Source: a virus | Lineage: Duplodnaviria > Heunggongvirae > Uroviricota > Caudoviricetes | IMG/VR virus record: IMGVR_UViG_2563366848_000001 | Length of the DNA: 36,138 nt | Direction: 5' to 3' (one strand) | Shown: one piece after another, positions 9,286 to 28,909 of the stretch | Numbering within the stretch: position 1 is the first letter of the stretch | Layout: each line of letters begins with the position of its first letter | Translations under genes and position numbers: made by a program | Notes under the pieces: model-generated | Told to the model about the DNA's origin: nothing | Database searches by the model: none | The model's input: the letters and a program-made list of their open reading frames with translations, nothing else

Positions 9286-9909
9286 TTAGCGTTTACGGCG
9301 GTAAATGCGGTGCTCGATCATGACACCGATGATCTGTAACTTCATGTCAGCACTGCGCAAAACAGGATAGTCTGGGTTAAGCGGAACCAATTCGAAGTCA
9401 TCAACACCTATTCCCAACGGGCGATATTTTTTGAATGTGGCTTCATGGCCGCCGTTCTTTGCAACCACGAATTCTCCTGGGGTAGGGCACAGATCCGGGT
9501 CGATAATCACGATATCGCCTTCTTTAAACTCCGGCTGCATGCTGTCGCCATCGATGCGAAGAGCGAAGCACGTTTCCGGTACGTCTGCATCAGCCAGAAC
9601 ATATTCAAAATCTCCTGTCAGGTCAGTAACGTCTCTTGCTTCAGTGAGACAACCCGCTTGTACGTAACTCAAAACAGGGATTCTTCTGGTGCTGATTTCA
9701 GCGAGCGGCATTATGTTTTTACCGTTCAATAGCCAGTCCGGGCTGCATTTCAGCGCCTTAGCCAGATCGAGAAGGTTACGCGGCTTTCGGGTGCGTCCGC
9801 TTTCTATAGACTCAATTGATTGCTGGCTAACTCCCGCAGAGTTTGCGACTTCTGTTTGTGTCATTCCAAGTTCGAGACGGCGGGCTTTGAAGCGTGCTGC
9901 GAGAGACAT
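9286..9909 (-). CDS. CI-like repressor (HTH-XRE plus S24 LexA-like peptidase domain)
   Basis: 207 aa from MSLAARFKARRLELGMTQTEV; HTH in N-terminus, GDSM serine and downstream Lys of S24 autopeptidase; start chosen at internal ATG 9909. Confidence 0.9.
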   Translation of the reverse strand: MSLAARFKARRLELGMTQTEVANSAGVSQQSIESIESGRTRKPRNLLDLAKALKCSPDWLLNGKNIMPLAEISTRRIPVLSYVQAGCLTEARDVTDLTGDFEYVLADADVPETCFALRIDGDSMQPEFKEGDIVIIDPDLCPTPGEFVVAKNGGHEATFKKYRPLGIGVDDFELVPLNPDYPVLRSADMKLQIIGVMIEHRIYRRKR

Positions 9910-10029
9910 TTTTAATACCTTGTAAGAGTTGAAATAATGACCTCCTATTATTAAATACAATTTTTGTTGTATTTGACAAACATGATTAGCTGTTGCTAAA
10001 TACCACTAAAATTGTATGAGGTGATAACT
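9910..10029. promoter_or_regulatory. cI-cro intergenic switch region with operator palindrome AAATACAA-N6-TTGTATTT (9953-9974) and putative PR (-35 TTGACA)
   Basis: Divergent repressor genes flank a 120-bp AT-rich region with a 22-bp palindrome overlapping a TTGACA hexamer; GAGGTG SD before cro. Confidence 0.6.
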
Positions 10030-10242
10030 ATGACTCTGGCTACCCGATTAAAAGAGCGACGTAAAGAGCTCAAAATGACGCAGGTCACGCTGGCTGAGCT
10101 AACAGGGGTTAGTCAGCAGGCTATCAACAGGATCGAAAGCGGTGTTATCTCACGCCCACGTTACCTTCTTGAAATCTCCGTTGCGCTTGATTGCGACCCA
10201 AACTGGCTGCTGCACGGCTCACAAAACGATAAAAAGGCGTAA
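10030..10242 (+). CDS. Cro-like HTH (XRE family) regulator
   Basis: 70 aa from MTLATRLKERRKELKMTQ; HTH similar to CI N-terminus; divergent from cI. Confidence 0.8.
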   Translation: MTLATRLKERRKELKMTQVTLAELTGVSQQAINRIESGVISRPRYLLEISVALDCDPNWLLHGSQNDKKA

Positions 10243-10245
10243 CCC

Positions 10246-12423
10246 ATGCCAGAGAAAAAGATCTGGGGGGCGACGCCTGATGAATGGTTCCACTTCGATC
10301 TGGTGCTGGGGCGTACTGACCAGCTGCTGCCGGTCGTGTGCAACCCGGGCGCGACCATATCCCCGAACAGCAAACTAAAAATGCTTGGCAAAACGCCGAG
10401 CCTCTATAACCGCGACCGACTGGCTACCGGGATCAAAGACTGGACCGAGCACGTTGTAACCGAGCGTGACTTTGCCCGCTGGTCGAACGAACCGGATTAC
10501 GGCATCTGCGTGCGTACAGGTCATGGCTGGCTGGCGCTGGACTGTGACAGCGAAGACGAAGACATCCAGGCCGATATTCGCAAAACGCTGGTGCAGCTGC
10601 TTGGCGAGCTGCCGCCGCGTCGCTGGCGCGCCAACAGTAATAAATGCCTGTACCTGCTGGCAGTCGACGGCGATTTCCGTAAGCGCACCCACCGTCTGGC
10701 GTGCGATATGGGGATTATCGAGCTGCTGGCTAACGGCCAACAATTCGTTGCCTGCGGTACGCACAGCAGCGGCGCGCGTATTGAGTGGGACGGTGGTCTG
10801 CCGGACGAACCTCCGGCGGTTACTGCAGACCAGCTCGAAACGCTTTGGCAGCGCCTTGCTGAACAGCTACCTGTGTCGGTTACCACCGAAGCGGGCAGCA
10901 CGAAGATGCGCGACCGCTCAACCTTCACGCCCGGCGCGACGGATGATACCGCCGAATACCTCGACGCAAATGGCTGGACGCTGCTTGATGGCGCGAACGG
11001 CGAGCGATATATCCGCTGCCCGTTCGAAGACGGCCACAGCACCGGCGGCGACCCGACCAGTACGGTTTACTTCCCGGGCGGTACCGCGGGCTTTGAGCAG
11101 GGGCATTTCAAGTGCCTGCACGCCAGCTGTGCGCATCGCGACGACGGCGATTTCCTTAATGCCATCGGGATCCGCAACGACGATTTCGAAGACCTGACCA
11201 GCACCGACGTTGCCGAGCCATTACCGCTGCCGGCGTTCGAGCGCGATAAGTGGGGCCGCATCGAGGCCACCATCAGCAACGCGGCAAAAGCCGTTGTGCG
11301 TCCTGATTTCGTGGACATCGATATCCGCTTTGACCAGTTCCGCGATGAAATCATGTTCGCCCAGGCGGGCTCCGGCCAGTGGCAGGCGTTCACCGATGCG
11401 GACTATGCGCGCCTGCGCATCACGATGGAAAAGCGAGGCTTTAAGCCTGTCGGGCGTGAGCTGATACGCGACGTGGTGCTGCTGGCCGCTGACGAACAGC
11501 CTTTCGACTCGGCGACCACCTGGCTTAACGGGCTGGAGTGGGACGGCGTGCCGCGTATCGAAACTTTCTACCATACGCACTTCGGTACCGCCGACACGCC
11601 ATACACCCGCGCGGTGTCCATGTATATGTGGACGGCGCTGGCGGGCAGGGTGCTGGAGCCCGGCGTCAAAGCCGATATGGTGCCGATCCTCGTCGGTCCT
11701 CAGGGCTGCGGTAAGTCCTCCGGCGTGGAAGCGCTTAGCCCCGACCCGGCGTTCTTCACCGAGATCTCTTTCGCTGAGAAAGACGATGACCTCGCACGCA
11801 AGATGCGCGGACGACTGGTAGCGGAGATTGGCGAGTTGCGCGGCCTCAATACCAAAGAGCTCGAATCCATCAAAGCATTCGTGACGCGCACGCATGAGAA
11901 CTGGATCCCTAAATACCGGGAGTTCGCTACCCAGTTCCCGCGTCGCCTGGTGTTCGTCGGTACCACCAACGAGGACGAATTCCTCGCTGACAAGACCGGT
12001 AACCGCCGGTGGTTGCCTGTGGAGGTGTCGAAAGTCGACGTGAAAGCGATAAAAACCGACCTCCTTTTGCTGTGGGCTGAGGCCCGCGAGACGTTTAAGC
12101 GCCTCGGCGGCATCCAGTTCCGCGATGCTGAGCGGCTCGGTGCGAGTGTCCACGAGCAGTACACGATTAAGGACGCGTGGCTCGAGACGGTCGAGAAATG
12201 GCTCGACACGCCTGACCTGATGACTAACGACATTCCGCGAAATTGCGAATTTTTACTAACTAGTGATGTGTTGAAAGAAGCGATTGGGCTCGATTCTCGC
12301 AACATTGGGAAACGTGAAGAAATGCGAATCGGTAATGTTTTGCAAAATTGCGGATATTTACGCGATAGGCGTTTCGTAAACGGTAAACAGATACGCGTTT
12401 GGGTGAAAACTAGTACCACCTAG
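10246..12423 (+). CDS. DNA primase-helicase (prim-pol N-terminal domain, zinc-binding region, VirE/D5-like P-loop NTPase)
   Basis: 725 aa; acidic DxD cluster LALDCDSEDED, Cys/His cluster CPFEDGH..HFKCLHASCAHRD, Walker A GPQGCGKS; P4-alpha-like arrangement. Confidence 0.85.
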   Translation: MPEKKIWGATPDEWFHFDLVLGRTDQLLPVVCNPGATISPNSKLKMLGKTPSLYNRDRLATGIKDWTEHVVTERDFARWSNEPDYGICVRTGHGWLALDCDSEDEDIQADIRKTLVQLLGELPPRRWRANSNKCLYLLAVDGDFRKRTHRLACDMGIIELLANGQQFVACGTHSSGARIEWDGGLPDEPPAVTADQLETLWQRLAEQLPVSVTTEAGSTKMRDRSTFTPGATDDTAEYLDANGWTLLDGANGERYIRCPFEDGHSTGGDPTSTVYFPGGTAGFEQGHFKCLHASCAHRDDGDFLNAIGIRNDDFEDLTSTDVAEPLPLPAFERDKWGRIEATISNAAKAVVRPDFVDIDIRFDQFRDEIMFAQAGSGQWQAFTDADYARLRITMEKRGFKPVGRELIRDVVLLAADEQPFDSATTWLNGLEWDGVPRIETFYHTHFGTADTPYTRAVSMYMWTALAGRVLEPGVKADMVPILVGPQGCGKSSGVEALSPDPAFFTEISFAEKDDDLARKMRGRLVAEIGELRGLNTKELESIKAFVTRTHENWIPKYREFATQFPRRLVFVGTTNEDEFLADKTGNRRWLPVEVSKVDVKAIKTDLLLLWAEARETFKRLGGIQFRDAERLGASVHEQYTIKDAWLETVEKWLDTPDLMTNDIPRNCEFLLTSDVLKEAIGLDSRNIGKREEMRIGNVLQNCGYLRDRRFVNGKQIRVWVKTSTT

Positions 12424-12588
12424 ACCACCTCGGCGTTTTAGGTGGTCTAGCAGCAAATGGCTGAAATTTAAGGCGAAAGCCAACCTAGACCACCTAGACC
12501 ACCTTTTTACTAAGAACCCCATATATATATATAAGTCGATTTGGGGAAAGGTTAGAAAATAGTGGTCTAGGTGGTCACAGGTGGTCTA
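12411..12588. repeat. iteron cluster (about 8 copies of TAGACCACC / GGTGGTCTA in both orientations) flanking an AT-rich (AT)n tract; putative origin of replication
   Basis: Direct copies at about 12411, 12421, 12486, 12495; inverted copies at about 12440, 12561, 12571, 12580; ATATATATATATA at about 12520-12533; immediately 3' of the primase gene. Confidence 0.7.
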
Positions 12589-12723
12589 GCAATGAATATG
12601 TAATTTATTGCAGGTAGCGATATGCAAACACGATTTGATTCCGCCACGGCGATTAACGAGCGCCAGAAGCTAAATAAAATCGCTCTCTATGCTCGCGCGT
12701 GCGCGCGTTTTGCGAGGTGACCT

Positions 12724-12999
12724 ATGCCAGTTGTCGCAACGTTCAAAACAGACTGGTTCCGGGTGATTAACGACATCACACGCAGCGGCATTCCCCTGCA
12801 GGAGATAGCCAGAGAGCTCGACGTGTCAAAGTCTGCTATCATCGGCTGGAAGCAGGGCGCAGCGCCGAACCACCACACAGGCGAAGCACTGATAGATTTC
12901 TGGTGCTACGTAACGCAGCGCCCGCGTTCCGAACTGCCAGCACAGGTTACATCACGGCGATTCGTTTACGCCTGGCGCACAAAGCGTTTGGCACCATGA
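12724..12999 (+). CDS. small HTH-containing protein (91 aa), candidate regulator
   Basis: Helix-turn-helix-like stretch IPLQEIARELDVSKSAIIGWKQG; GAGGTG SD; sits between origin and the late operon promoter. Confidence 0.5.
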   Translation: MPVVATFKTDWFRVINDITRSGIPLQEIARELDVSKSAIIGWKQGAAPNHHTGEALIDFWCYVTQRPRSELPAQVTSRRFVYAWRTKRLAP

Positions 13000-13009
13000 A
13001 AACTTGCAA

Positions 13010-13062
13010 AAACAGGGCGTTCATCGGTTAAAAACGCTATGCAAAAACCGCCCTGTTTTATG
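13010..13062. terminator. hairpin with flanking T-runs (possible bidirectional terminator)
   Basis: 10-bp inverted repeat AAACAGGGCG..CGCCCTGTTT with a structured loop, T-run on both strands. Confidence 0.4.
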
Positions 13063-13179: not shown

Positions 13180-13212
13180 AAATCGGCCCTGTTTTTAACA
13201 AATCTTCCATTT

Positions 13213-23993: not shown

Positions 23994-26896
23994 TGCCGGT
24001 ATACGCCACCCCTGAAGAACTCAATAACGGATTCACTCCGGCGGGTAATGTCCTGGCTGCACCTACCGGATTTGATGTGCCTTTGCCTGAAGGTACTAAC
24101 CCAGCACCTCAGCAGGATGAGCCGTCTGTGTGGGGCGCTGCATTTCGTCAGAATAACCTGCTGGCTGGAATGTTCCGCTCGGCCAAACAATTCGAACCGG
24201 CGGACGGGTATAACCCTTATTCTGATAAAAACGAACTAAAGGGGTACGAACAATGGGGATCCGCCTTTGCGGATTCTCGATCGCCAGAGGAAACCGCCTG
24301 GATAAAAAACCAGATAGACGATGAAAATGAAGACCGTCGGGTTTTGTCTGAGGCAGGCGCTGAAGGAACTCTGGCCAGTATCGCCGCCGGGGTTATCGAC
24401 CCTGTCACGGTCGCATCGATGTTTATTCCCGGTGCGCAGGGAAGCCTGGCTGCTCGTATTGGTTCTCAGATTGCTATTGGCGCCGCCGGTACCGCACTTA
24501 GCGAGGTTGCGCTCAATAACGAGCAGTACACCAGAACAGCAAGGGAGAGCGCCGCGCACATTACAGCCGGCGCGCTTCTCAGCGGTGTATTTGCTACTGC
24601 TGGCGCGATGATCACCCCATCGGTAAGAAACGCGGCTACACGGGAAGTGGCGGAGGCGCTCGATAACATGAATGCCGCGCCAACGATTAACAACGCAGCT
24701 GACGCCCTGGCGGATACTTTACCGAACGGTGGCAGCGTCGGCGCCATGCGTATTCGCGAAGCAACGCTGGAAGACCTCACACCGGTGTCTGGCGGCCCGC
24801 TCGGCAAGCTGGCTAAAAAGGCCGGTAGCTATCTGACGCCGATCACCCGCCTGATGGAATCCCCATCAAAAGAAGCGCGCCGGACAGCGCTGGAGTTGGC
24901 GGAGAATAACTTCACGCTGGAAGGCAACCTGCGCGGTATCGAAACACCGGTAGCAGCCGAGACGCGCGTACGTGGCTGGCACCGCGAAGAGGCGGCCGTC
25001 GTTACTGCGAATAAGCAGGCATACACCCAGTATAAAGCCGAAGGCGGCGATCTGGGTTATACGGCCTTCCGTGAACAGGTTGGCGAGGCGCTGCGTAACG
25101 GCGACGTGCACGTTAATGCAAAAGTGCAGGAAGCTGCGCAGGCAATGCGTACGGTCATTAACCGCGTGAAGACAGCCCAGCAGGAACTGGGCTTACTCCC
25201 GCCGGATGCCGAACTGAAAGCGATGGGACAGACCAGCTATTTTCCGCGCGTGTACAAGGTGGGTAAAATCGTTAGCGAGCGAGATAAATTCCGCAATATG
25301 CTGGTTGACTGGTGGTCACGCGGTGAGAAAACCATGTCCCGCGAAGATGCTGAAATCGCCGCCGATACCACTATTAACCGTATTGTCGGGGCCAAAATTC
25401 CGCAGGAGTTTGCCAGCGTCTTTATGGTGAAAGCGCCGGGCAGCACCAAATCGCGTACGTTGAGCGTTCCCGATCGCCTGATGAAAGATTATCTGGAGAG
25501 CGATGCAAACTACGTCCTGCAGCGTCATATCCGCGAAGCCTCAGCGGAAATTGAATTAACCCGTACCTTTGGCAACAAGTCGCTGGATTCGCAGCTCGCT
25601 GCCATCCAGGACGAATACGACGCGCTGATGCGGTTACGCCCGGCAGAGCAGGAAAAGCTGGCGAAGGCGCGCGAAGCCGATCTGCGCGATATTCTGGCGC
25701 TTCGCGATCGCCTCGTCGGTACCTACGGTATGCCGGATGACCCATCATCATTTTTCGTTCGCGCCGGTGCGTTTCTGCGTAGCGCCAACTTTGTCACCAA
25801 GCTGGGCGGTATGACCGTTTCCGCTATTCCTGATCTCGCCCGCGGTGTGATGGTTAACGGGTTTGGCAATACCATGCGCGGTTACTCTGCGCTGATAACC
25901 CGGTCGCCGGCATTCAAGGCCAGCCGGGCCGAACAGTTAAAAATGGCCGTCGGGCTGGAAACCATCCTGCATACCCGTGCGCGTACGATGGGTGACCTGG
26001 TAGACAGCTCCTCCCGCACTACAGCGGTAGAGGCGGGAATGGAGCGCGTCACCGATGCGTTCGGCAAGCTCACGCTGATGGGCCACTTCGACGATATGAA
26101 CAAATCGGTAAACGGCATGATCACCTCCGACGGCATTCTGTCCGGCGCGTTTGCGGGCCGCCGCCTTGCCAAGCTCGGCATTAACGACAATATGGCCGCG
26201 CGTATTCGCAGCGAATTCGAAAAACACGGTGAGGTAATCAATGGCTGGCATATCGGCAATTTTGAAAAATGGGACGATCAGCATGTGGCTGGCGTTTTTC
26301 AGTCGGCCGTGCTCAAAGACGTTAACAATACAGTTATCACACCGGGGATCGGCGATACGCCATTGTGGGCCAGCACGCCACTGGGTAAAACTATCTTCCA
26401 GTTTAAATCGTTCGCTACCGCGTCCTACAACCGCGCAACGCTGGGCGGCCTGCAGGAGGGAACCGGACAGTTTTATTACGGTACCGCTTTCCAGATTAGC
26501 CTCGGCGCACTGACGTACGCACTTAAACAATCCGCAAATGGTAAAGAGGTTGACTGGTCGCCTCAGAAACTGGCCATTGAAGGTATCGACCGGTCCGGTA
26601 TTCTCGGCCCGCTGATGGAATATAACAACATGGCAGAAAAAGCCTCCGGCGGTATGGTGGGGCTGGGTGCACTGCTCGGTACCGGCACACAGTCTCGCTA
26701 TGCCAGCCGTGGCTTTATTGGCTCCGCTCTCGGCCCGACGTTTGGCTTGCTGGATACCGTCACCGATGTGACCGCCGGAGTGCTCAACGGTGATGCTGGC
26801 GATCGGGTACTGCATAACGTGCGTACGCTGCTGCCGGGTAATAATCTTTTCTGGATAGCGCCGCTGATAAATCAGGTTGACCCCGGCATGCGGTAA
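23993..26896 (+). CDS. internal virion (ejection/core) protein, gp15/16-like
   Basis: 967 aa, start overlaps previous stop (TAATG); position before terminase genes. Confidence 0.6.
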   Translation: MPVYATPEELNNGFTPAGNVLAAPTGFDVPLPEGTNPAPQQDEPSVWGAAFRQNNLLAGMFRSAKQFEPADGYNPYSDKNELKGYEQWGSAFADSRSPEETAWIKNQIDDENEDRRVLSEAGAEGTLASIAAGVIDPVTVASMFIPGAQGSLAARIGSQIAIGAAGTALSEVALNNEQYTRTARESAAHITAGALLSGVFATAGAMITPSVRNAATREVAEALDNMNAAPTINNAADALADTLPNGGSVGAMRIREATLEDLTPVSGGPLGKLAKKAGSYLTPITRLMESPSKEARRTALELAENNFTLEGNLRGIETPVAAETRVRGWHREEAAVVTANKQAYTQYKAEGGDLGYTAFREQVGEALRNGDVHVNAKVQEAAQAMRTVINRVKTAQQELGLLPPDAELKAMGQTSYFPRVYKVGKIVSERDKFRNMLVDWWSRGEKTMSREDAEIAADTTINRIVGAKIPQEFASVFMVKAPGSTKSRTLSVPDRLMKDYLESDANYVLQRHIREASAEIELTRTFGNKSLDSQLAAIQDEYDALMRLRPAEQEKLAKAREADLRDILALRDRLVGTYGMPDDPSSFFVRAGAFLRSANFVTKLGGMTVSAIPDLARGVMVNGFGNTMRGYSALITRSPAFKASRAEQLKMAVGLETILHTRARTMGDLVDSSSRTTAVEAGMERVTDAFGKLTLMGHFDDMNKSVNGMITSDGILSGAFAGRRLAKLGINDNMAARIRSEFEKHGEVINGWHIGNFEKWDDQHVAGVFQSAVLKDVNNTVITPGIGDTPLWASTPLGKTIFQFKSFATASYNRATLGGLQEGTGQFYYGTAFQISLGALTYALKQSANGKEVDWSPQKLAIEGIDRSGILGPLMEYNNMAEKASGGMVGLGALLGTGTQSRYASRGFIGSALGPTFGLLDTVTDVTAGVLNGDAGDRVLHNVRTLLPGNNLFWIAPLINQVDPGMR

Positions 26897-26898
26897 TC

Positions 26899-26914
26899 GG
26901 TCGGGATTCCGACC
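26899..26914 (+). repeat. conserved hairpin motif GGTCGGGATTCCGACC, copy 3
   Basis: Exact 16-mer 3 nt after stop of the 967-aa gene, about 20 nt before a strong terminator. Confidence 0.8.
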
Positions 26915-26932
26915 TCAAAAAGCATACACCAT

Positions 26933-26960
26933 AGCCCTGTATTCACTACAGGGCTTTTTT
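26933..26960 (+). terminator. strong intrinsic terminator abutting the next start codon
   Basis: AGCCCTGT-ATTCACT-ACAGGGCT followed by TTTTTT, the T-run ending at the ATG of the 26961 gene. Confidence 0.75.
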
Positions 26961-27302
26961 ATGCATCAGGATTACAAGACACGCCTTACCGCGCTGAGCG
27001 ATAAACTCACTGACGTGGTGCTCGAAGAAGCCGATCCGGACAACTGGCCGGGGGCGGGGAAGAAACCCAGCGAACTGACCAAAGACGAGCGCGGCGATCG
27101 ATACTGGGACAAGAAGAACGCGGCGGCTTCGCTGACGCTGCTGATTAAGGTGCATTCCCTTATTGGCATGCAAACGCGCGGTGGTACGCCTTCAGATAAC
27201 CCCGGGCAGGATGATGAAGCCTTTGCGCTGGGGCAGCAGGTATCGAAGGCGGAGCGTGAAGCCCTCGCCATTATCGAGCGCCTGCAGAAAGGCAAAAAAT
27301 GA
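26961..27302 (+). CDS. putative terminase small subunit (113 aa)
   Basis: Position directly upstream of and overlapping (ATGA) terminase large subunit; no obvious SD; assignment is positional only. Confidence 0.45.
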   Translation: MHQDYKTRLTALSDKLTDVVLEEADPDNWPGAGKKPSELTKDERGDRYWDKKNAAASLTLLIKVHSLIGMQTRGGTPSDNPGQDDEAFALGQQVSKAEREALAIIERLQKGKK

Positions 27303-28909
27303 TTTCGTTCCTCGCCTTCTTTTTAATGTGGGCGGAGCGGATGAACTGGGACGTTCCGGACTGCCACTATCGTGCCTGTCACTGGCTGGAGCATCGCGGA
27401 AATCTTGCGGTGCTTCGCTGTTTTCGTGGTTTCGGTAAATCTACCATACTGGGCGTTTATAACGCATGGCGATATTACTGCGACCGCCAGTACCGGGTCC
27501 TGCACCAGTCTGAATCAGATTCCACAGCGCGCAAAACCAGCCGCGATACGCAGAACGTTTTACGCAATCACCCCCTGACAAAAGGCATGTTGCCGGATGG
27601 ACTCGGCACAGTCGAGCAGTGGTGGGTTAACGGTTCGCTGGATATGCGTAACGCGAGCATGTTCGCAAAAGGTATCCTGTCGAACGTTACCGGCGCGCGT
27701 GCAAATGAGTGCCAGAACGACGACGTGGAAGTCCCCGGCAACATCCAGACGCCGGAAGCGCGTGAGAAACTGCGATACCGCCTGAGCGAGCAAACTCACA
27801 TCCTGATCCCCGGCGGGCGAAAGCTCTTTATCGGTACACCGCACACACATGACAGCCTCTACGATGAAATGGAATCGGCAGGTGCTGACTGTCTGACCAT
27901 TAAACTGTTTGAGAAAGAAAAGCGCATCGAGGCGAAGGATGCCACGCAGCTGCGCTACGTTATTCCGTTCCGGCCGGAGTACGTTTTCGCGGGCATCCAT
28001 AAAGCGGCGCGACTGCTGGTCGAGGGTGTTGACTACAAGCTGACCGCCGACGGCGTGGAGTTTGCTGCGGCGCCAGAGACGGTTATTGATTTCTACGCCG
28101 GATGTGCCTGGCCTGAGCGATTCGATCATGACGAGCTGGAGTTGCGCCGTAAAGAATGTCGCACCGTTAACGAGTGGGACAGCCAGTACCAGCTGCACAG
28201 TAAACCCGTTGGCGACGTTCGTCTCGATCCTGATCGCATCCGTGAGTACAACATCCATCCTGAAATTCGCTACGCCAACCGTACCGCCTCGATGTGGCTC
28301 GGCAGCACGCAAATTGTTGGTGCTGTGGCGTGGTGGGACGTGGCAACCGGTAAAGTGAAAGCGGACGCCTCAGCGTTATCCCTGATACTGACTGACGCGC
28401 GCGGACATCTGTACTGGCATGTTTGCAAGGAGCTGACTGGTGAACTGGCAGAGTTTGACGATAACGACAAGATTACTGGCGGGCAGGTCGCCCAGATTAA
28501 AGAGCTGGTTATCCGATACCAGATCCCCGTTGTTTGTGTCGAGGTAAACGGCCCCGGCGGCTTTGCGGGAAAACTGCTGCGGCAGGCGTTAAAAGGTACC
28601 GGGTGCGGCGTGCGGGAAGAATTCAGCGTGACAAACAAGCAGAAGCGTATCCTTGATGCGTTCGAAGCTCCTTTGTCTTCCCGTTTCCTGTGGGCGCACA
28701 CTGACGTGCTTGATGGCCCGATGTACGACCAGATGCGGGACTTTAACCCGGCACTGACCAACCAGCCGGACGATTTCATTGATTCTGGTGCGGGTGCTAT
28801 TAGTGCAACGCCGGTTCGTATCGGCAAAGTGGTCGGGATTCCGACCGGACAATCGCGGGAACATTGGCAGTTAAGTGACGGAGACCATGAGGTCGAAGTC
28901 GATTATTAA
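27299..28909 (+). CDS. terminase large subunit, T7 gp19-like
   Basis: 536 aa; Walker A-like FRGFGKST near N-terminus; acidic nuclease-type C-terminal region. Confidence 0.8.
   Translation: MISFLAFFLMWAERMNWDVPDCHYRACHWLEHRGNLAVLRCFRGFGKSTILGVYNAWRYYCDRQYRVLHQSESDSTARKTSRDTQNVLRNHPLTKGMLPDGLGTVEQWWVNGSLDMRNASMFAKGILSNVTGARANECQNDDVEVPGNIQTPEAREKLRYRLSEQTHILIPGGRKLFIGTPHTHDSLYDEMESAGADCLTIKLFEKEKRIEAKDATQLRYVIPFRPEYVFAGIHKAARLLVEGVDYKLTADGVEFAAAPETVIDFYAGCAWPERFDHDELELRRKECRTVNEWDSQYQLHSKPVGDVRLDPDRIREYNIHPEIRYANRTASMWLGSTQIVGAVAWWDVATGKVKADASALSLILTDARGHLYWHVCKELTGELAEFDDNDKITGGQVAQIKELVIRYQIPVVCVEVNGPGGFAGKLLRQALKGTGCGVREEFSVTNKQKRILDAFEAPLSSRFLWAHTDVLDGPMYDQMRDFNPALTNQPDDFIDSGAGAISATPVRIGKVVGIPTGQSREHWQLSDGDHEVEVDY
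28831..28846 (+). repeat. conserved hairpin motif GGTCGGGATTCCGACC, copy 4 (inside 3' end of terminase gene)
   Basis: Exact 16-mer within coding sequence (encodes VVGIPT), about 85 nt upstream of the tail fibre start. Confidence 0.8.

Follow-up and report, generated by a model that had tools for sequence, protein, structure and literature searches.

A putative SaPI/PICI-style replication origin beside a Prim-Pol/VapE-like initiator gene in a dusA-integrated prophage of Escherichia coli

The virus record IMGVR_UViG_2563366848_000001 (36,138 nucleotides (nt), the whole of which we call the window) is a complete temperate prophage of Escherichia coli integrated at dusA. Directly behind its gene for a primase-helicase of 725 amino acids (aa) lies a cluster of short repeats at 12410-12589, which we consider very probably to be the vegetative replication origin of the element, built in the style of Staphylococcus aureus pathogenicity islands (SaPIs) and phage-inducible chromosomal islands (PICIs) and served by a self-loading initiator. 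A preliminary description of this DNA had suggested a putative origin made of initiator repeats around an AT-rich core. That suggestion is supported by three comparisons, namely a layout kept in ~110 loci, covariation of the repeats with the wing of the initiator, and homology between its helicase and that of SaPI Rep, which together point to an origin.

A repeat cluster behind an initiator gene

The cluster is compact and unique in the window. The preliminary description counted about eight copies in mixed orientation from the last codons of the primase-helicase gene onward, and our count agrees closely, with six exact and three degenerate copies of CTAGACCAC (Table 1). The copies indeed surround an AT tract, ATATATATATATA at 12521-12533, which lies between the left and right repeat sets. 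The left set (12476-12502) consists of three tandem repeats with a 9-bp period, the core has a GC content of ~0.32, and the end of the initiator gene, its last codons and stop included, lies within the first repeats, with the end of the cluster 166 nt past that stop. Units of 9 nt, mixed orientation, partly abutting copies and irregular spacing exclude a CRISPR array, as had been stated. The exact 9-mer TAGACCACC occurs five times, always within 12421-12588 and nowhere else in the 36-kb window. When the best 9-mer cluster per 180-bp span was compared with 200 local shuffles of the window, we found six copies here versus two to four in the shuffles, and 0/200 shuffles reached five. No comparable short-repeat cluster is present elsewhere in the window, the one at 12410-12589 being the strongest.

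Other signals were sought in and around the cluster. An Rfam E-value search of 12200-12800 returned a chance microRNA match only (E = 0.64), and we reject an RNA gene in this interval, the sole match being at chance level. A promoter and terminator scan found no site inside the cluster, and the only nearby promoter-like site (12653-12680) lies upstream of the open reading frame (ORF) ORF91. Neither a DnaA box nor an integration host factor (IHF) consensus is present in the region, and window-wide counts of both are at chance level.

The adjacent gene, labelled 'VapE domain-containing protein' by RefSeq in E. coli B379, encodes the candidate initiator. This protein has a VapE-like superfamily 3 (SF3) helicase domain (Pfam PF05272, aa 427-626, E = 2.4e-60) preceded by a Prim-Pol domain (PF09250, aa 53-184, E = 6.6e-11 with the N-terminal 320 aa scanned alone), and it matches DNA primase/helicase families of PHROG and no model of NCBIfam. 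A phmmer search aligned aa 393-656 with SaPI1 Rep (PDB 7PDS, E = 3.4e-33). The C-terminal domain was modelled as a winged helix that superposes on the SaPI1 Rep chain; the alignment behind the model is shallow because a protein search with the 90-aa C-terminal domain gave only nine fragments. The Prim-Pol domain was missed by the full-length Pfam scan and scored 43 bits against a cutoff of 22.8 bits once the N-terminal 320 aa (10246-11205) were scanned by themselves, a caution for domain calls in this initiator family.

One part of the preliminary description did not stand. It had likened the cluster to origins bound by primase-helicases of the P4-alpha type, but BLASTP between the two proteins gives E = 0.66, TIGR01613 is not matched, and the architecture is Prim-Pol plus VapE-like instead. 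No domain model of P4 alpha (Zn-ribbon, Toprim, D5_N, TIGR01613, Pox_D5) is above threshold in the initiator, and DUF5906 scores 24.4 bits, below its cutoff of 27.6. On these comparisons the initiator appears analogous to P4 alpha and outside that family, with SaPI/PICI Rep-ori as the closest characterized system.

Conserved layout, variable repeats and covariation with the wing

The module combines a conserved layout with diverse repeat sequences. We compared about 110 related loci from Enterobacterales to Burkholderiales, including 80 IMG/VR loci whose initiators are 69-100% identical. In all relatives examined the module lies directly 3' of the initiator gene, down to initiator identities of about 45-50%. 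Carriers include the named phages Yersinia YeP4 (repeat TAGACAACC), APSE-1 (GTAACAACC) and Caulobacter JessA (GTAACCAC), as well as genomes of Pectobacterium, Trabulsiella, Xenorhabdus, Photorhabdus, Symbiopectobacterium, Gilliamella, Orbaceae, Burkholderiales, Thauera and Accumulibacter. In the common layout, a pair of direct copies spans the stop codon and is separated by a loop of ~9 nt from a single inverted copy; then come ~35 AT-rich nt, three direct copies with a 9-bp period, a core of ~59 nt and three inverted copies. The commonest orientation string across loci is ++-+++---. Among close relatives the core is near-invariant (YTACTAAGAACCCC(AT)6AAGTCGNTTGGGGAAAGGTTAGAAA), and it is near-identical even between loci with different repeats. 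An alternating AT tract is found in 87/89 loci, and the spacer between the sets is mostly 55-64 nt long with a mean GC content of 33%.

The repeats themselves differ from locus to locus. At least 12 repeat types are present: CTAGACCAC, CTAGACAAC, TGTAACCAC, TGTATCCAC, TGTTACCAC, TGGAACCAC, TGTACCAAC, TGTCCCAAC, TGTCCCCAC, TGAAGCCAC, CGTAACAAC and TGTAACCAA. Distant hosts carry unrelated units, for example TTTCTACAC or TGTTACCCT. Switching is concerted, in that the copies of one locus change together and the core between them stays constant; the left triplet and the inverted right triplet of the locus-specific repeat are kept in relatives with other repeat sequences.

Repeat type is tracked by a few residues at the C terminus of the initiator. 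In an alignment of 79 initiators (H(type) = 2.86), mutual information with repeat type is low over most of the protein and reaches its maximum of 2.33 bits at residue 716, with 2.11 bits at the adjacent residue 715 and further signal at residues 708/709, 717 and 719. The codons of the peak precede the first repeat by ~20 nt. In the DNA itself, variation linked to repeat type is limited to about 12360-12590; the information drops over the conserved core, and little signal is left past 12600. Among seven proteins of the neighbourhood, columns above 0.5 of H(type) occur in the initiator only; for cI, the Cro-like protein, ORF91, ORF161, ORF76 and ORF307 the maximum is at most 0.45 (0.17 for ORF91).

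We typed the wing by the motif GK-x-x-[RK]-[VI]-[WF] and found that wing QI-R goes with repeat CTAGACCAC, QQ-R with CTAGACAAC, VQ-R with TGTAACCAC, VL-K with TGTATCCAC, LM-K with TGTTACCAC, K[SC]-K with TGGAACCAC, MT-R with TGTACCAAC, KM-R with TGTCCCAAC and KQ-R with TGTCCCCAC. Over 90 loci the adjusted Rand index between wing and repeat type is 0.76. At position 7 of the repeat, C accompanies Trp719 in 55 loci and A accompanies Phe719 in 27, with three exceptions. The same pairing of wing and repeat recurs in backgrounds that are 71-76% identical (YeP4 versus locus L019, and L072 versus L057). Also in line with the origin reading, megablast similarity of most E. coli relatives to the window ends at a mosaic boundary at 12357, just before the wing codons, where this cassette starts. 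The putative recognition helix (KREEMRIxNVLQN) and the repeat half C-N-A-C are both invariant in the enterobacterial set, and they change together in Gilliamella and Thauera.

These patterns suggest how specificity might be divided within the protein. The invariant helix appears to go with the C-N-A-C half, and the wing residues 715, 716, 717, 719 and 706-711 appear to go with the variable 5' half. A bolder suggestion, which we advance tentatively and regard as possible rather than probable, is that the loci form a specificity-swap series of a self-loading SF3 initiator in which the invariant helix reads C-N-A-C and hypervariable wing residues read the variable 5' half. If so, the series would be a case of RFX-like, wing-dominated base recognition, and nearly isogenic prophages of E. 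coli and Enterobacterales would have evolved at least 12 origin specificities that are orthogonal to one another. The driving force could then be selection to avoid cross-activation by other prophages of the same host or hijacking by satellites, and an origin design described as unique to PICIs would be common to complete temperate phages across Proteobacteria or ancestral to them.

We infer a sequence of events in which the initiator binds the repeats, melts the core, loads and primes. Induction would turn on the rightward early operon, expressing the Cro-like gene and then the Prim-Pol/SF3-helicase gene. The C-terminal winged helix of the initiator would bind the 9-bp repeats, about three copies head-to-head on each side of the 59-nt AT-rich core, as well as an auxiliary palindromic site of 2+1 copies that spans the stop codon. 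Oligomers on both sides would melt the (AT)6 tract and two SF3 hexamers would load themselves onto the melted DNA; the Prim-Pol domain would lay down the first primers, after which the family-A DNA polymerase and the Enc34-type single-stranded DNA (ssDNA)-binding protein of the phage would take over. We propose a SaPI-like mechanism because SaPI Rep-ori is the closest studied system and E. coli PICIs share its design. The genomic context is supportive, with a polymerase, an ssDNA-binding protein and a nuclease all encoded by the element and no other origin-like cluster in the window.

Several observations weigh against this reading or limit it. Duplex stability does not single out the AT tract, which is among the weakest sites of the window without being the unique minimum; the core is among the third to seventh least stable stretches of the window, and this measure therefore supports an origin weakly. 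The cumulative GC skew has its minimum at 8.3 kb and carries no information on 12.5 kb, since it follows the switch in gene orientation. The relation between wing and repeat is strong and not one-to-one, with KS and KC wings sharing one repeat type and VT and MT wings another. Co-inheritance of a mosaic block contributes to the association because the covarying codons are only 20-190 bp from the repeats. Such co-inheritance is not fully separable from functional coupling, but linkage does not explain why eight or nine copies, on either side of a core that stays unchanged, always agree with one another. Finally, for this phage family the case for an origin draws on sequence and model comparison.

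Some loci depart from the common pattern. Loci of the TGTATCCAC type (L013, L027, L030) mix TGTATCCAC and TGTAACCAC copies in one origin region; the TGTATCCAC-type loci have wing VL-K, versus VQ-R in pure TGTAACCAC loci. These mixed loci may be specificity-switch intermediates, or their initiators may have relaxed specificity. Genomes with two such prophages give an anecdotal view of whether origins within one host tend to be of different types: CTAGACCAC and TGGAACCAC occur together in IMG 2837389702 (L005/L065), in Xenorhabdus yunnanensis XENO-10 (L095/L097) the CGTAACAAC type is accompanied by a mixed TGTAACCAC/TGTATCCAC type, and in Symbiopectobacterium sp. RP (L098/L099) both copies are of the same type. 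The initiator tails TSTT, EPPGTT and SQPVPASK are encoded by the repeats themselves, and in L041 and L067 the initiator ORF passes the usual stop and crosses the first palindromic repeat pair to give a protein of 737 aa with the tail ...EPPKREGGSTLQAL. In APSE-1 (L002, NC_000935) a hypothetical ORF named 'P4' (3445-3666) starts in the AT-rich core and spans the right inverted repeats (GGTTGTTAC, three copies); this ORF may be an artefact of gene prediction across the origin. In the window, a palindrome TTGCA-N10-TGCAA at 12608-12627 lies between the last repeat and ORF91, close to the repeat. Strict matches to it occur in 32/81 loci versus 0.6% of background windows, with one-mismatch variants (TTGCG...) in many other loci, and the Burkholderiales, Thauera and BPP-1 loci have a related TTTTTTGCA(CGTT) motif behind their right-hand repeats. 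This palindrome could be an operator or a part of the origin.

Alternative readings and prophage context

One alternative is an origin recognized by structure, in which the two inverted arms form a functional stem-loop or cruciform of ~100 nt on which the replication protein would assemble, and the repeated units do not act as individual duplex binding sites. Single-stranded 12470-12600 folds into a long hairpin (dG -26.9 kcal/mol, z -5.9) whose pairing reaches into the conserved core (TTTTACTAA with TTAGAAAA, CCCC with GGGG), most relatives' origin regions fold into the same hairpin, and a concerted change of left and right arms would also keep complementarity. A precedent is known, in that a stem-loop 3' of the Prim-Pol/SF3/winged-helix gene of pRN1 (ORF904) is required for replication, and one is also predicted 3' of the primase gene of Bordetella BIP-1 (PMC4234260). 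However, a stem has no need of arms made from tandem 9-bp units. Copies also lie outside the palindrome, at 12410-12450 here, as five unpaired tandem units in L081 and as extra copies in APSE-1 and L111; the arms pair poorly in L007, L098 and L091 (z -1.2 to -1.7), where the repeat units are nevertheless kept; and a purely structural signal does not predict covariation with wing residues. Because of the tandem units, the outside copies, the poor pairing with kept units and the tracking by the protein, we read the hairpin as a consequence of the inverted sets and consider recognition by structure unlikely to be the basis of the origin. The iteron and stem-loop models are not exclusive and both can be true; per-position agreement of plus and minus copies did not separate the two.

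Alternatively, the cluster could be an auxiliary initiator-binding region needed in cis, or for titration or autoregulation, with replication starting elsewhere. The model for this is crr of P4, which has type-1 repeats in both orientations and lies directly 3' of the alpha gene, as the window cluster lies behind its initiator gene; the P4 ori lies beyond the opposite end of alpha, at a distance of ~2 kb. A crr-like role is distinctly improbable here because no second repeat cluster is found in the 36-kb window; moreover, like SaPI/PICI origins, the cluster includes a conserved AT-rich core of its own.

A control region between early and late operons, with the first palindrome as terminator of the early transcript and the repeats as operators for a phage regulator such as ORF91, is a highly improbable reading. 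In its favour, the RNA hairpin at 12420-12450 is stable (dG -24.9 kcal/mol), TTTTAA follows it in many relatives, and ORF91 belongs to a PHROG family annotated as transcriptional repressor. But the hairpin is not followed by a U-run in the window, the cluster holds no promoter- or terminator-like site, and nine sites around a conserved AT tract would be an atypical operator geometry; nor do ORF91, the Cro-like protein or cI track repeat type (maximum mutual information/H 0.17-0.34).

Some packaging (pac) sites, for example that of P1, consist of short repeats flanking the cleavage region, and in Caulobacter phage JessA terminase genes come shortly after the cluster. Even so, a pac site read by the small terminase has a negligible probability, because the terminase genes of the window are ~14 kb away and the APSE-1 cluster stays with the primase-helicase gene without a terminase next to it (a hypothetical gene and then a Q-like antiterminator gene follow), and the repeats track residues of the initiator.

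The origin reading thus remains the preferred one, and the surrounding DNA places it in a complete prophage (Table 1). The window is 100% identical to a stretch of the chromosome of E. coli B379, where RefSeq annotates nothing in the intergenic region. Portal, capsid, tail and lysis-region genes are encoded in addition to those tabulated, and a leftward replication operon encodes a family-A DNA polymerase, an Enc34-type ssDNA-binding protein, a DUF2800 nuclease, an SNF2 helicase and a VRR-NUC protein. Since the window has a full virion gene set, an integrase and a DNA polymerase, it does not qualify as a satellite; the element is a complete prophage with a PICI-like replicon and not a PICI. 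Among named phages it is closest to YeP4-6 of Yersinia (initiator 71% identical) and the Hamiltonella APSE phages (helicase half 71%), and related initiator genes are present in 103/5426 complete E. coli genomes (about 2%).

Two further sets of small repeats lie elsewhere in the window. Copies of CAGCACCCCA / TGGGGTGCTG between integrase and dusA (35032-35041, 35048-35057 and 35061-35069, with weaker ones at 34828 and 34864) are candidate arm-type sites of the integrase near attR. Direct and inverted copies of AAAACAGGGCG / CGCCCTGTTTT between ORF91 and ORF161 (13009-13019, 13049-13059 and 13186-13196) could be terminator hairpins or operator sites.

The cluster and its neighbouring gene provide a concrete candidate origin and initiator for a widespread, unstudied prophage group that includes the APSE phages of aphid symbionts and the dusA prophages of E. 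coli. In these genomes the origin region is currently unannotated or, in APSE-1, covered by a protein-coding ORF. We found no described origin for APSE-like phages in the literature, where one APSE study used originX only. The near-isogenic variants give a testable recognition rule for how a VapE/Rep winged helix reads iterons, and could also serve as orthogonal replicon parts.

Table 1. Positions of the repeat cluster, the initiator and other features in the window
Feature	Positions	Strand	Remarks
Degenerate repeat CTAGTACCAC	12410-12419	+	one inserted base; encodes last initiator residues
Exact repeat CTAGACCAC	12420-12428	+	holds initiator stop codon TAG (12421-12423)
Exact repeat CTAGACCAC, inverted copy	12442-12450	-	with 12420-12430 forms an 11-nt palindrome with a 9-nt loop
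Degenerate repeat AAAGCCAAC	12476-12484	+	first unit of left tandem triplet
Exact repeat CTAGACCAC	12485-12493	+	second unit of left triplet
Exact repeat CTAGACCAC	12494-12502	+	third unit of left triplet
Core TTTTTACTAAGAACCCC-(AT)6A-AGTCGATTTGGGGAAAGGTTAGAAAA	12503-12561		59 nt; putative DNA-unwinding element
Exact repeat CTAGACCAC	12562-12570	-	right inverted set
Degenerate repeat TGTGACCAC	12571-12579	-	right inverted set
Exact repeat CTAGACCAC	12581-12589	-	right inverted set
Initiator gene	10246-12423	+	725 aa; Prim-Pol, VapE-like SF3 helicase and predicted C-terminal winged helix
Predicted winged-helix codons	12259-12408	+	about aa 672-721
Winged-helix parts			helix aa 672-680; putative recognition helix aa 689-701 (KREEMRIGNVLQN), invariant; hairpin wing aa 704-711 and 714-721
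Residues tracking repeat type	12388-12393 (Q715, I716)		Q715, I716, R717, W719
dusA fragment	about 1071-1175		prophage lies between it and intact dusA; a frameshifted DUF2713 gene is also at this end of the window
LexA/S24-type repressor	9286-9960	-	
Cro-like helix-turn-helix protein	10012-10242		directly before initiator in rightward early operon
ORF91, 91-aa helix-turn-helix protein	12724-12999		PHROG family annotated as transcriptional repressor; 135 nt right of cluster
Large terminase	27299-28909		probable partner at 26877-27302
Integrase	33923-35011		
Intact dusA	35101-36138		stop codon is the window end

Comparison with known replication systems

In the origin of phage lambda, as in the window, short repeated initiator sites lie beside an AT-rich unwinding region; lambdoid phages differ in origin specificity, and early rightward transcription crosses the lambda origin. 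Lambda has four direct iterons inside the O gene, and O is without helicase or primase activity, with host DnaB and DnaG brought in via P. In the window, by contrast, the repeats overlap the last codons only, the sets are inverted, and the initiator has a helicase and a primase of its own.

P4 alpha likewise unites a primase, an SF3 helicase and a C-terminal origin-binding winged helix in one polypeptide (PMC4234260), the winged helix of the window initiator being a prediction. Short repeats in mixed orientation are also common to both, and TGTTCACC of P4 resembles the TGTTACCAC type found among relatives of the window. However, P4 alpha has Zn-ribbon, Toprim, D5_N and Pox_D5 domains and matches TIGR01613, unlike the window initiator, and P4 uses the type-1 octamer TGTTCACC at two sites, ori and crr (NC_001609 annotation), whereas the window has the repeat CTAGACCAC(C) in a single cluster.

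With pRN1 the window shares the domain order Prim-Pol, SF3 helicase and (predicted in the window) winged helix, and a stem-loop of ~100 nt 3' of the gene. For pRN1, which is without iterons, recognition of structure has been proposed (PMC4234260); in the window, unlike pRN1, the arms are repeated units that covary with the protein, and extra copies lie outside the stem. The primase of BPP-1 shares Prim-Pol with the window initiator (E = 1e-6), and its helicase part is not similar. In BPP-1 (L114, NC_005357) we observed, at about 600-730 of the locus (26599-26729 of the record), two copies of TTTGCCTCG, a palindromic AT-rich centre, two copies of CGAGGCAAA and then AAAAAATTGCACGTT. This module has the same layout, but it lies ~450 nt 3' of the Prim-Pol primase gene, with a gene on the opposite strand between them.

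The closest counterparts are the replicons of SaPIs and PICIs, such as S. aureus SaPI1, SaPIbov1 and SaPI5 (PriRep) and the E. coli PICI EcCICFT073. SaPI Reps are self-loading SF3 helicases whose C-terminal winged helix recognizes iterons; rep is directly followed by six to twelve iterons, which an AT-rich region divides into two groups of opposite direction with no fewer than two iterons each; binding and melting are ATP-independent, and two hexamers are thought to load, one per side (PMC9371898). A residue-level account of iteron reading by SaPI Rep is not given in that work. E. coli PICIs share the design, and a pri-rep-ori segment of EcCICFT073 has been assayed for plasmid maintenance (PMC6092414). 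The window agrees with these systems in its VapE-like, presumably self-loading SF3 helicase initiator (PF05272, homology to SaPI1 Rep), in the fusion of primase to Rep as in SaPI5, in the place of the putative origin directly 3' of the initiator ORF, and in two opposed iteron sets (12476-12502 and 12562-12589) that flank an AT-rich centre (12503-12561). It differs in that its units are 9 bp long at a 9-bp period, whereas those of SaPIs are penta- or hexanucleotides, in an extra 2+1 palindromic site overlapping the stop codon, and in its host element, which is a complete temperate phage and not a satellite island. Together, our results suggest that 'PICI-type' origin architecture is not limited to satellites and is found in complete phages across Gamma- and Betaproteobacteria, and at the level of sequence this phage family is a counter-example to an origin design confined to PICIs.

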